Part shown: piece after piece, positions 53,261-55,558 of the stretch
How the letters are laid out: the number at the start of each line of letters is the position of its first letter
Position numbering within the stretch: position 1 is the first letter of the stretch
From: Escherichia phage KKE7M
Direction: 5' to 3' (one strand)
Length of the DNA stretch: 64,000 bases
Sequence record: PQ356295.1
The notes under the pieces: model-generated
What the model saw: the letters and a program-made list of their open reading frames with translations, nothing else
The model's database searches: none
What the model was told of the DNA's origin: nothing
Translations under genes and position numbers: made by a program

Positions 53261-53290
53261 ACTCTAACATATTATTAGCCCCTTTGTCAA
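53261..53290 (-). promoter_or_regulatory. Sigma70-like promoter P1: TTGACA -N18- TAGAGT with TGn, 12 nt upstream of tRNA-Gly
   Basis: Perfect -35, TGtTAGAGT extended -10 on minus strand. Confidence 0.5.
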
Positions 53291-53304
53291 GAGGCTTTTG
53301 ATAT

Positions 53305-53634
53305 TTATTTTAAAATAGTAGATGCACCACGTCTGTTTAGATATGCAACAGTAAAGTCCAAATCACCTATTTCTTCAGGTTCCCACTGACCTTCTAAGCC
53401 ATAGCAAGAACAATGATATGCGTGTACTTCATAAAACAGAGATGTTTTCATATCATAAAAATAAACGTGAGATTCACCTTCATAATATGCACAGTCATAA
53501 GTGGCAGAAAGAATTACAATGTTATCCTTATCTAACTCTACTTCATAATATCTTTCAACATCTTCGATATCATCAAAACCATCGAAAACATTGATGTTAA
53601 AATATTTCTCTAACTCTTTTTCTGTCACATACAC
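53305..53634 (-). CDS. Hypothetical protein (109 aa) inside the tRNA array
   Basis: ORF in track, acidic, Cys/His-containing. Confidence 0.5.
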   Translation of the reverse strand: MYVTEKELEKYFNINVFDGFDDIEDVERYYEVELDKDNIVILSATYDCAYYEGESHVYFYDMKTSLFYEVHAYHCSCYGLEGQWEPEEIGDLDFTVAYLNRRGASTILK

Positions 53635-53651
53635 TCCTTTAGAGTTAAAAT

Positions 53652-53726
53652 TGGTGCTCCCACAAGGACTCGAACCCTGATAAGTTGCTTACAAGGCAAC
53701 CGTAATAGCCGTTATACGATAGGAGC
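53652..53726 (-). tRNA. tRNA-Thr (anticodon UGU)
   Basis: Cloverleaf with T-loop TTCGAGT, anticodon arm GTTGC/GCAAC with loop CUUGUAA. Confidence 0.8.
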
Positions 53727-53732
53727 AATACT

Positions 53733-53810
53733 TGGACTCGACAGGATTCGATACCTGCAATTCCAGAAGCCTATTGGCGACTGGGGGTTTACCTTAACTC
53801 TACAAGTCCA
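53733..53810 (-). tRNA. tRNA-like element, non-canonical (8-nt T-loop TATCGAAT, irregular anticodon arm), possible pseudo-tRNA
   Basis: 7-bp acceptor pairing and recognisable D-arm with GG, but T-loop has an extra nucleotide and the putative anticodon loop GCCAAUA lacks U33. Confidence 0.3.
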
Positions 53811-53816
53811 TAATTC

Positions 53817-53901
53817 TGGCGATGGATCAAGGATTTGAACCTTGCTAGAACTTTCGTTCACGGATTAACAGTCCGTCGCCCAACCACTAGGCCAATCCAT
53901 C
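53817..53901 (-). tRNA. tRNA with Asn anticodon GUU and a long (15-nt) variable arm
   Basis: Perfect acceptor, T-arm CAAGG/CCTTG, anticodon arm ACGGA-CUGUUAA-UCCGU, discriminator G; extra arm GAAC-GAAA-GTTC gives a class II shape unusual for Asn. Confidence 0.6.
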
Positions 53902-53908
53902 TTTAATT

Positions 53909-53995
53909 TGGTGCAGGTAGTTGGACTCGAACCAACGAAGCCCCGAAGGGCAAGAGATTTACAGTCTCCAGCAATTGCCGCTATGCGATACCTAC
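53909..53995 (-). tRNA. tRNA-Tyr (anticodon GUA), class II
   Basis: 87 nt; T-loop TTCGAGT, anticodon loop CUGUAAA, variable hairpin GCCC-CGAA-GGGC, 3-bp D-stem. Confidence 0.8.
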
Positions 53996-54000
53996 GTGTT

Positions 54001-54075
54001 TGGTACATCGTGAAGGATTCGAACCTTCGCTCCCTTGATTAAAAGTCAAGTGCCTTACCGCTTGGCTAACGATGC
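54001..54075 (-). tRNA. tRNA-Lys (anticodon UUU)
   Basis: Acceptor with one G-U pair, T-arm GAAGG/CCTTC, anticodon loop CUUUUAA; 5' end overlaps the HNH gene stop. Confidence 0.8.
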
Positions 54076-54435
54076 ATACTCTTTACACCACCGTGTATGT
54101 CCAGCATAAGCCTTTGTACTATGGAATACTGCTCCGCAAACACACACCGTGGTTCTAATTCTGTTTCCCATGTCTTGGGAAATTCTTGTCTTCTTCATGT
54201 GACAAGCATGACACAAAAGTTGACATTTGGCAAGTTCTTCTTGCCATTTAGCCTCCGAACATGAACTCATTCGACTAATATAAAACTTCTTCTCGCTTGA
54301 ATCTTTATGATCAAATTCCAAGTCATCTACAGACCCACAATTAACACATTTACCTCCAAGCTGGAGGATTGCGGAAGCTCTTCGCTTCTGCCACCGAGTT
54401 TTCATGTATTCCCGCATATAATCATTACTTGGCAT
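54055..54435 (-). CDS. HNH homing endonuclease
   Basis: CVNCGSVDDLEFDHKD...LLCHACH motif; GGAGG RBS; last 21 nt overlap tRNA-Lys. Confidence 0.75.
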   Translation of the reverse strand: MPSNDYMREYMKTRWQKRRASAILQLGGKCVNCGSVDDLEFDHKDSSEKKFYISRMSSCSEAKWQEELAKCQLLCHACHMKKTRISQDMGNRIRTTVCVCGAVFHSTKAYAGHTRWCKEYASLAKR

Positions 54436-54512
54436 ACATCCTCCTCGTATAAATTATCTTTAAAATAGCCAGTGTTTGCGGCACTTAGCTATGAAGTATT
54501 GGGGTATCGGTA

Positions 54513-54530
54513 AAGTGGTTGCCGCCACTT
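54513..54530 (-). other. Intergenic hairpin AAGTGG-TTGCCG-CCACTT upstream of HNH gene
   Basis: Perfect 6-bp inverted repeat in a 145-nt tRNA-free spacer; no U-tract. Confidence 0.25.
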
Positions 54531-54582
54531 GCCGAAGATTTACTCTGCTAAAGTAAGAGTACAAGCTACATTAAAGATAACT

Positions 54583-54668
54583 TGGCGGTAGATGTAGGAC
54601 TTGAACCTACACGCCGTTTCCGACGACAGTTTAGCAAACTGTTGTGGCTACCATTTCACCAATCTACC
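54583..54668 (-). tRNA. tRNA-Ser (anticodon GCU), class II
   Basis: 86 nt; perfect acceptor, T-arm GTAGG/CCTAC, anticodon arm ACAGT/ACTGT with loop UUGCUAA, discriminator G. Confidence 0.8.
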
Positions 54669-54713
54669 ATTTTTAATTATTCAAAACAACCTGAATCTGT
54701 TACTAATTGAATT

Positions 54714-54803
54714 TGGAGGAAGATAATGGAGTCGAACCATCACCGTATCGCTACAATGGGCCAGGGTTCAAACCTGGTTGCGCACCGCTGCGCCCTACCT
54801 TCC
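54714..54803 (-). tRNA. tRNA-Ser (anticodon UGA), class II
   Basis: 90 nt; anticodon arm CCAGG-UUUGAAC-CCTGG, T-loop TTCGACT, long variable arm, 3-bp D-stem. Confidence 0.75.
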
Positions 54804-54818
54804 CGTTATCATACTTTA

Positions 54819-54848
54819 AATCTAACATAAAACTATCTTGCTTGTCAA
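54819..54848 (-). promoter_or_regulatory. Sigma70-like promoter P2: TTGACA -N18- TAGATT with TGn, 15 nt upstream of tRNA-Ser(UGA)
   Basis: Perfect -35 and TGtTAGATT on minus strand; nearly identical to P1. Confidence 0.5.
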
Positions 54849-54867
54849 GTAGTTTTTAAAAACTTTT

Positions 54868-54949
54868 TGGCCGGGGTGACAGGATTCGAACCTGCATACT
54901 CCAATTACTCGGTTAACGCCTGATTAGAAGTCAGGTGAGATACACCCCG
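54868..54949 (-). tRNA. tRNA-Arg-like (anticodon UCU), atypical: no recognisable D-arm
   Basis: Perfect 7-bp acceptor (CGGGGTG/CACCCCG), canonical T-arm, canonical anticodon stem-loop CCUGA-CUUCUAA-UCAGG, but only 7 nt between acceptor and anticodon stem and a 23-nt extra region with a GUAA-capped hairpin. Confidence 0.45.
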
Positions 54950-54960
54950 TTTTCACAGTA

Positions 54961-54989
54961 ACTATAACAAAAAACTAAGTAAATGTCAA
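54961..54989 (-). promoter_or_regulatory. Sigma70-like promoter P3: TTGACA -N17- TATAGT with TGn, 12 nt upstream of the Arg-like tRNA
   Basis: Perfect -35 and TGtTATAGT on minus strand. Confidence 0.5.
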
Positions 54990-55030
54990 GATATTTTTAC
55001 TAAAATTATTATTTAAATTGAAGCCTAGGT

Positions 55031-55116
55031 TGGTGCAAGTGGAGGGATTCGAACCCTCAATCATTTAAGCGTTGCGTTTTAAGCACAATGTGTATCACCA
55101 ATTCCACCACACTTGC
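55031..55116 (-). tRNA. tRNA-Leu (anticodon UAA), class II
   Basis: 86 nt; perfect acceptor, T-arm GAGGG/CCCTC, anticodon loop CUUAAAA, long variable region. Confidence 0.75.
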
Positions 55117-55147
55117 ATATAGGAGATGCATAGCACCTCCTTTTAAA

Positions 55148-55223
55148 TGGTGGTTCCCCAGGGTTACAATCCCTGCCCTCGACACTTATGAGGTGTGCGC
55201 TCTCGTCAGTGAGCTATGGAACC
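55148..55223 (-). tRNA. tRNA with CAU anticodon (Met or lysidine-type Ile), non-canonical T- and D-loops
   Basis: Acceptor with one mismatch, anticodon loop CUCAUAA, T-loop ATTGTAA, D-loop without GG. Confidence 0.5.
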
Positions 55224-55230
55224 TTGAATA

Positions 55231-55497
55231 TTAAGCATACTGGGTCATTTCACCAGCTTCGCGTTTCTCCAGAAGAACTGTAATCAAAGCAATAGCTGCT
55301 TCTTCTTCGTGAGGAAGCCCCATTTCATCCAGAAGAGCAAGGAAATCAATTACCAAACTTTCTGTTTTAAGGCTAACGCTACCATTTTCGTTTTCAGTAA
55401 GAACTGATTCAGGTTCAAAAATAAAGATTGCTCCACCTTTATTATCAATCAATACGTGCTTCTCAATCAATTCTTTACCATAAGTACGTTCTGTCAT
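55231..55497 (-). CDS. Hypothetical protein (88 aa)
   Basis: ATG after AGGAG; promoter-like P4 upstream. Confidence 0.55.
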   Translation of the reverse strand: MTERTYGKELIEKHVLIDNKGGAIFIFEPESVLTENENGSVSLKTESLVIDFLALLDEMGLPHEEEAAIALITVLLEKREAGEMTQYA

Positions 55498-55527
55498 AGT
55501 TTTCTCCTTTTTGTTTAACTTGGGCTT

Positions 55528-55558
55528 ATCTTAGCAAATAACTAGCTATGTTGTCAAC
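55528..55558 (-). promoter_or_regulatory. Sigma70-like promoter P4: TTGACA -N19- TAAGAT with TGn
   Basis: Perfect -35 overlapping the stop of the small membrane ORF; about 30 nt before the ATG of 55231-55497. Confidence 0.4.

Follow-up and report, generated by a model that had tools for sequence, protein, structure and literature searches.

Candidate sigma-70 promoters with an extended -10 element in the tRNA array of a phi92-like coliphage

The closest described relatives of the system considered here, four candidate promoters (P1 to P4) in the transfer RNA (tRNA) array of Escherichia phage KKE7M (sequence record PQ356295.1, of which a stretch of 64,000 nucleotides, hereafter the window, was analysed), are found in phage rV5 of the Vequintavirinae. 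The rV5 paper gives 33 predicted sigma-70 promoters, 11 of them with an extended -10 element, lists PtRNA, P074 and P075 around the tRNA cluster, and puts forward TGGTAAAATA as a late motif (Kropinski et al. 2013, PMC3606486); the RefSeq record (NC_011041) carries the sites as regulatory features, including a 'Sigma70-type promoter; P(tRNA)' within the tRNA cluster. The rV5 authors report no homologues of T4 gp33, gp45 and gp55, and they considered that the promoter specificity of the host holoenzyme may not be modified in the manner of T4 (PMC3606486). In the Certrevirus phages CB7, CR3, CR8 and CR9, a related group of myoviruses, a sigma-70-like promoter with an upstream A-tract occurs 13 to 21 times per genome and is read by the authors, who report no phage RNA polymerase gene for CB7, as use of the host RNA polymerase (PMC7344957).

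The window derives from a phi92-like coliphage (Justusliebigvirus, Stephanstirmvirinae) with 98.8% identity to Escherichia phage EC_OE_11. It aligns in reverse to positions 27320-88813 of that genome at 97-99% identity except in two tail-fibre segments, and its positions 52000-56500 match 505 phage records, led by EC_OE_11 (99.2%) and then further Justusliebigvirus genomes. The gene layout used below was carried over from the EC_OE_11 and phi92 annotations; in the 47.3-57.9 kb stretch of the phi92 GenBank record, ribosome-binding sites are the sole regulatory features annotated. Because near-perfect sites exceed chance, are enriched between genes and in the direction of the genes, are conserved in another genus and have a precedent in rV5, we consider it highly probable that P1 to P4 are functional promoters read by the host Escherichia coli RNA polymerase with sigma-70.

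An earlier note on this DNA had proposed four minus-strand sites of this kind in the array, and all four were found, each with a -35 element matching TTGACA at six of six positions (Table 1). The -10 hexamers match TATAAT at four to five of six positions and all have the form TAnnnT, with A at -11 and T at -7, and a TG at -15/-14, one base upstream of the hexamer (TGT, TGT, TGT and TGC; TGn below), extends each of them. P3 is the top sigma-70 match in the window at 15.9 bits. Every site is intergenic or overlaps a stop codon (the P4 -35 overlaps that of a 36-amino-acid open reading frame (ORF)), and every site is co-oriented with the genes. The spacers measure 18, 18, 17 and 18 nucleotides, within the proposed range of 17-19 nucleotides, although a 19-nucleotide spacer was never seen. 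Three of the sites do stand just before a tRNA or tRNA-like 5' end, but at 11, 15 and 11 nucleotides rather than 12-15, and only P1 and P2 precede ordinary tRNAs, the element behind P3 being a non-canonical tRNA-like RNA without a D-arm. The family had also been called near-identical, which is true of the hexamers and the TG but not of the spacers: P2, P3 and P4 have TAGTTnTnTG in common within theirs, and the P1 spacer shows no likeness to them. The A+T content at -57 to -36 is 77-91%, in intergenic DNA that is A/T-rich in general, and the discriminators (AATATTG, TAAAGTA, TACTGTG and AAGCCCA) are A/T-rich as well. None of the four sites has a MotA box (TGCTTtA), or indeed any TGCTT, at -30, where T4 middle promoters would carry one; the canonical TTGACA at -35 is present instead.

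To gauge how often such sites arise by chance, the strict pattern TTGACA-N15-21-TGN-TANNNT was counted in the window and in 100 dinucleotide shuffles of it. The window contains six sites against 0.74 +/- 0.86 in the shuffles, none of which reached six; P3, whose N14 is one base short, escapes the pattern and makes a seventh. The weight-matrix scan for which the earlier note had called, run with a sigma-70 matrix that gave no bonus for TG and with hits counted at 12 bits or more, pointed the same way. In the window, 10 of 19 hits were intergenic against 6.1% expected from the intergenic share of the sequence (binomial p = 4e-8), nine of the ten being co-oriented with the genes; across the whole EC_OE_11 genome the intergenic hits were 30 of 60 against 9.7% expected (p = 2e-15), 28 of the 30 co-oriented.

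Within Justusliebigvirus (phi92, ESCO8 and EC_OE_11) the four sites are nearly invariant, which is little informative at 93-99% overall identity; P1 is identical in all three, and P3 is present in phi92 and EC_OE_11 and has an 18-nucleotide spacer in ESCO8. The informative comparison is with two phages of another genus, Phapecoctavirus PNJ1809-36 and ZCKP1, in which only the tRNAs align (83-84%). For seven window sites, including P1, P2 and P4, these phages show a counterpart in the same place; P3 has no Phapecoctavirus counterpart. Base by base, in seven window/Phapecoctavirus pairs of equal length, identical positions number 42/42 in the -35, 13/14 in the TG, 35/42 in the -10 and 55/110 (50%) in the spacer. 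Given that the search pattern itself forces eight matching positions per site, the core was recomputed on unforced positions only, of which 34 of 42 were identical, still well above the spacer (Fisher p = 4e-4). A core that is kept while spacers diverge is what selection on promoter elements would be expected to leave, and the complete conservation of the -35 argues that this element matters here. More distantly, a Mydovirus (Vequintavirinae) carries TTGACA/17/TAATAT 13 nucleotides before a tRNA-Met.

The same comparison bears on another origin for the likeness of the sites, namely that promoter-tRNA cassettes were duplicated, or hitch-hiked with a mobile element of the HNH type, so that no selection for promoter function would be involved. 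P2, P3 and P4 share not only the TAGTTnTnTG spacer segments but also an upstream AAAAACTA, and an HNH gene lies inside the array. However, the retention of -35, TG and -10 between genera whose spacers are only 50% identical indicates selection on the elements, the P1 spacer is unlike the other three, and an origin by duplication would not in any case exclude function. We regard this explanation as very improbable.

If P1 to P4 are promoters, sigma region 4.2 would read the perfect TTGACA, region 3.0 the TG at -15/-14 (in a T-A/T-T-G-n context that fits the 'TRTGn' form of the extended -10), and region 2 the TAnnnT, and the polymerase may gain an UP-element contact from the A/T-rich tracts between -40 and -60. 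Transcription would start at a purine about seven nucleotides after the -10, near 53254 (G) for P1 and near 54812, 54954 and 55521 for the other three. The tRNA-proximal promoters P1 to P3 would thus have leaders of about 5-9 nucleotides (about 5 for P1), to be trimmed by RNase P. Host tRNA and rRNA promoters have G+C-rich discriminators and are under stringent (ppGpp/DksA) control; since the phage discriminators are A/T-rich, the phage tRNA promoters would be expected to escape ppGpp control. Whereas the sequence architecture, the statistics and the conservation are shown above, the identity of the polymerase, the start sites, the strength and the timing are inferred, and the labels 'strong' and 'host polymerase' attached to these promoters earlier likewise come from the sequence.

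Several points weigh against the promoter reading. A loose consensus scan of 46-64 kb returned 68 sites against 56.3 +/- 7.1, which is barely an enrichment, so that only near-perfect sites carry signal. TGn was not significantly commoner among intergenic than coding hits in EC_OE_11 (15/44 versus 22/94, p = 0.13). An 18-nucleotide spacer is suboptimal for sigma-70, a handicap that the extended -10 probably offsets. Finally, a literature search on Stephanstirmvirinae and Vequintavirinae found no transcriptome or transcription start site data, nor any 5'-end, reporter or in vitro transcription data for a phi92-like phage; a time-course of the E. coli phage vB_Eco_K1B4 was set aside as a dataset because that phage is a Kagunavirus. 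The loose scan, so near to shuffle expectation, together with the A/T-richness of the intergenic DNA, is also what could be said for the sites being mere chance matches. Set against the strict counts, which no shuffle reached, the orientation bias in the EC_OE_11 genome and the retention of positions in another genus, chance is exceedingly improbable and is already effectively refuted.

A different alternative accepts sites of the P1 to P4 type as real promoters and assigns them to a separate temporal class, middle or continuous, serving tRNA, structural and replication genes; sites with an 18-nucleotide spacer and TGn would stay or become active after the phage disrupts -35-dependent early transcription. 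Extended -10 promoters lean less on sigma region 4. Among the co-oriented intergenic candidates of EC_OE_11 outside the early region, 7 of 21 have an 18-nucleotide spacer and six of these seven also have TGn, whereas none of the 23 early-region promoters has such a spacer, 16-17 nucleotides being used there; the combination is thus found in 6/21 versus 0/23 (hypergeometric p ~0.008, calculated by hand). All six belong to the section of the genome that the window spans. The early promoters have a signature of their own in their 16-17-nucleotide spacers and a conserved downstream hairpin, and in rV5 there is a gene for an Srd-like putative anti-sigma protein as well as a proposed late motif that resembles an extended -10. 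Yet the -35 is kept perfect across genera, which would be unexpected were it dispensable, and TGn by itself does not separate early from other promoters significantly in EC_OE_11 (6/23 versus 9/21, p = 0.34). While we think a separate class unlikely as the explanation of P1 to P4, these counts are suggestive of a split between the 18-nucleotide, TGn-bearing sites and the early promoters with their shorter spacers, a split that the 'one promoter type' of the earlier note passes over. Neither the comparison of intergenic with coding hits nor that of early with other promoters supports TGn as a genome-wide hallmark, which was rejected; the extended -10 is a trait of this subset and not of every promoter of the phage. 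The early region itself, at about 117.7-127.4 kb of the EC_OE_11 record and outside the window, holds about 18 early promoters (TTGACA, about 17 nucleotides, TAnnnT), often after a AAAAAATA tract and each with the conserved hairpin cATAGGGCGGgaaatggtttCCc a few bases downstream, a cassette that recalls the 'PeSL' cassettes of T4.

Returning to P1 to P4 as host-read promoters, their transcription units are likely to end at the first convincing terminator downstream of the array (Table 1). Since there is no credible terminator between P4 and that hairpin, the four promoters stack; each would add transcription to the tRNAs downstream, and every sub-cluster would receive its own start. Behind P4 come the 88-amino-acid ORF (55231-55497), tRNA-Met and tRNA-Leu(taa); behind P2, Ser-Ser-(HNH ORF)-Lys-Tyr-Asn-Thr and a 107-amino-acid ORF; and behind P1, Gly-Gln-Pro-Phe-Leu-Met-Ile and one ORF.

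Table 1. Features of the window, with counterparts in Phapecoctavirus. Promoter-like sites are given as -35 / spacer length / -10 with any preceding TGn; nt, nucleotides; aa, amino acids.
Feature	Position	Strand	Elements or content	Context	Phapecoctavirus counterpart
P1	53261-53290	minus	TTGACA / 18 / TGT-TAGAGT	11 nt, then tRNA-Gly(tcc) at 53249	TTGACA / 18 / TATAGT; same 11 nt before tRNA-Gly, unrelated spacer
P2	54819-54848	minus	TTGACA / 18 / TGT-TAGATT	15 nt, then tRNA-Ser(tga) at 54803	TTGACA / 18 / TGT-TAGATT; before Ser tRNAs
P3	54961-54989	minus	TTGACA / 17 / TGT-TATAGT	11 nt, then tRNA-like element at 54949	
P4	55528-55557	minus	TTGACA / 18 / TGC-TAAGAT	30 nt, then ATG of 88-aa ORF	TTGACA / 18 / TGT-TAGGAT; before ORF preceding tRNA-Met
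tRNA-like RNA	54871-54949	minus	acceptor stem, anticodon arm (UCU), variable hairpin, T arm, encoded CCA		
tRNA array	52360-55223	minus	15 tRNAs by ARAGORN and one tRNA-like element	three ORFs lie within it, one of them an HNH endonuclease gene	
Intrinsic terminator	51941-51965	minus	10-bp stem and T run	first convincing one downstream of array	
Site	10536-10565	plus	TTGACA / 18 / TGT-TATTAT	10 nt before 132-aa ORF, replication module	TTGACA / 18 / TGA-TAGGAT; replication module
Site	36248-36277	minus	TTGACA / 18 / TGA-TAAAAT	between tape-measure gene and next tail gene	terminator after tape-measure gene, then TTGACA / 18 / TGT-TACAAT
Site	46746-46774	minus	TTGACA / 17 / TAGACT, no canonical TGn	between portal and next head gene	between portal gene and next head gene
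Site	48440-48469	minus	TTGACA / 18 / TGT-TAAAGT	between large terminase and portal genes	between terminase and portal genes
Site	55950-55978	minus	TTGACT / 17 / TGA-TAAGAT	overlaps 3' end of NAMPT gene	3' end of NAMPT gene
Site	57737-57765	minus	TTGACA / 17 / TAAGAT, no TGn	32 nt before nicotinamide phosphoribosyltransferase gene	
Site	58709-58737	minus	TTGACT / 17 / TAGAGT after AGG, so no TGn	39 nt before PRPP synthetase gene	
Site	58919-58947	minus	TTGACA / 17 / TGC-TACCCT	249 nt before PRPP synthetase gene	
Gene block	1-13.1 kb	plus	replication genes		
Gene block	58.7 down to 13.2 kb	minus	PRPP synthetase, nicotinamide phosphoribosyltransferase, small ORFs, tRNA array, spanin, terminase, head/tail/fibre genes		
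Gene block	from 59.1 kb onward	plus	second plus-strand gene block		

Some further features of the array deserve mention. A hairpin, AGCCTC-TTGACAAA-GGGGCT (53270-53296), holds the P1 -35 in its loop; read on the plus strand, with a T-run behind it, it resembles an intrinsic terminator directed against antisense transcripts. The hairpin is missing from the Phapecoctavirus counterpart of P1 and was rejected as a part of the promoter. Another TTGACA, at about 52540 in the gap between tRNA-Met and tRNA-Ile, was not counted, as no -10 stands at a usable distance. The HNH homing-endonuclease ORF (54055-54435, minus strand) runs with its 3' end about 20 nucleotides into the start of tRNA-Lys and is missing from phi92 and ESCO8, which marks the array as a site of mobile-element turnover. 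Two gaps on the minus strand contain what may be decayed or non-canonical tRNAs: 52444-52504 reaches 22.9 bits with the Rfam tRNA model, which is below threshold, and corresponds to a stretch in which ESCO8 carries an extra tRNA-Met, and 53727-53816 has recognisable acceptor-like and T-arm-like segments.

Beyond the array, the architecture had been said to recur at three places, and does so at 36248-36277, directly behind a terminator hairpin, and at 10536-10565, but not at 58709-58737. A site with the full architecture at 48440 had been missed, as had partial matches at 46746, 55950, 57737 and 58919. The earlier interpretation is partly supported. Its central reading, of extended -10 sigma-70 promoters that serve tRNA genes and recur elsewhere, agrees with all the computational tests made, namely the intergenic enrichment and co-orientation, the conservation and the rV5 equivalents, but reuse is only loosely true of the nicotinamide adenine dinucleotide (NAD) module, because 58709 reads TTGACT/17 and 57737 reads TTGACA/17, both without TGn. 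Of these, 57737-57765 is the better candidate for an NAD-module promoter.

The region of divergence at 58670-59078 (409 nucleotides) contains two minus-strand promoter candidates upstream of the phosphoribosyl pyrophosphate (PRPP) synthetase gene, and no comparably good plus-strand sigma-70 promoter was found in it to serve the gene block beginning at 59079. The site at 58919-58947 is followed by a CCCCC...GGGGG hairpin, and its segment GTATGCTACCCT is kept in Phapecoctavirus; with the 249 nucleotides downstream, it may give rise to a leader or to a small RNA serving the NAD-salvage module. Such a leader matches no known riboswitch, since Rfam at gathering thresholds finds only tRNAs in the window. 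Downstream of the nicotinamide phosphoribosyltransferase (NAMPT) gene, a 306-nucleotide 'gap' contains an ORF of 73 amino acids with a zinc-ribbon-like CxxC...CxxC pattern (55678-55899, minus strand), unannotated in EC_OE_11 and phi92; the site at 55950-55978 lies 50 nucleotides upstream of it.

The RNA predicted behind P3 is a more unusual item than the promoters and merits a separate look. The Rfam tRNA model gives it 38.6 bits, but ARAGORN did not call it. A linker of seven nucleotides takes the place of the D-arm, and the variable region is 23 nucleotides long; in the covariance-model alignment, 4 nucleotides stand for the 15-nucleotide D-arm and the variable region has a 20-nucleotide insertion. 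The minimum-energy fold gives the acceptor stem, an anticodon loop CUUCUAA, a small variable hairpin and the T arm. Homologues of 82-86% identity, unannotated or labelled 'tRNA-OTHER', occur in five further phage groups, namely Felixounavirus, a jumbo phage, a T5-sized Klebsiella phage of 110 kb and Mydovirus, all four unrelated groups, and another member of the Vequintavirinae. In an alignment of seven sequences, 97% of cells pair, and seven pairs in the acceptor, anticodon and T stems have changed on both sides, a covariation reached by 0/500 shuffles and by no slid control; no variation is seen in the linker GTATCTCA or in the variable-region sequence. This pattern points to a genuine, conserved, non-canonical tRNA-like RNA, of which the literature searched yielded no description. 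In Felixounavirus and in Klebsiella phage Roth39, it adjoins HNH genes.

The array contains no other Arg tRNA, leaving this RNA as the sole candidate decoder of AGA there, a codon that accounts for 30.5% of the Arg codons of the window genes. Phapecoctavirus and rV5 have a normal tRNA-Arg(tct), and for Felix O1 the published account notes that no tRNA for AGA was found although one 'might have been expected'. No promoter was found within 100 nucleotides upstream of the homologues in six other phages. It is possible, although we hold the idea only tentatively, that P3 exists solely to express the D-armless UCU RNA and, separately, that promoters with an 18-nucleotide spacer and TGn make up a temporal class. 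Were the RNA charged and used in translation, it would be a tRNA of a bacterial system that lacks the canonical cloverleaf; otherwise it might serve as a decoy against tRNA-targeting nucleases.

The promoters themselves are a further instance of a known and expected element, predicted examples of which are already annotated in related phages, and leave current understanding unchanged. Their value is mainly for annotation, in that they give the tRNA array its transcription units, with four stacked starts and a single terminator. They suggest that phi92-like phages, like rV5, could run tRNA, NAD-salvage, head and tail genes on unmodified host polymerase, and, to judge from the A/T-rich discriminators, the phage would make its tRNAs free of the stringent-response brake on host tRNA promoters. 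As compact near-consensus sites of 30 nucleotides with very short predicted leaders, they could also serve as parts for tRNA expression in E. coli.

Expression of a tRNA cluster from host-polymerase promoters is familiar from T4 and T5, and T4 middle promoters typically have an extended -10. There, however, the MotA box at -30 replaces the -35, whereas the window sites keep a perfect TTGACA. Classic E. coli extended -10 promoters often lack a good -35; the window sites resemble them in the T and purine before the TG (five of seven family members) and in the retained A at -11 and T at -7, but in them TGn goes together with a perfect -35 and with a spacer one nucleotide too long. The Certrevirus promoters differ in form, AAAA(N3)TGTTGAC(N19)TATAAT, and are concentrated in the early region, no site within a tRNA array and no TGn being described for them. 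The nearest likeness is to rV5, also a large myovirus, with TTGACA-N17-TAnnnT promoters spread over early, tRNA and structural regions, a promoter in its tRNA cluster (with P74 and P75 just upstream of the cluster) and terminator-promoter pairs in the tail module. It belongs to a different (sister) subfamily with little DNA similarity outside the tRNAs. Its single P(tRNA) stands 58 nucleotides before the first tRNA, a tRNA-Arg, with a 17-nucleotide spacer and no canonical TGn, whereas the window has four stacked promoters, three of them 11-15 nucleotides from a tRNA 5' end, mostly with 18-nucleotide spacers and TGn.

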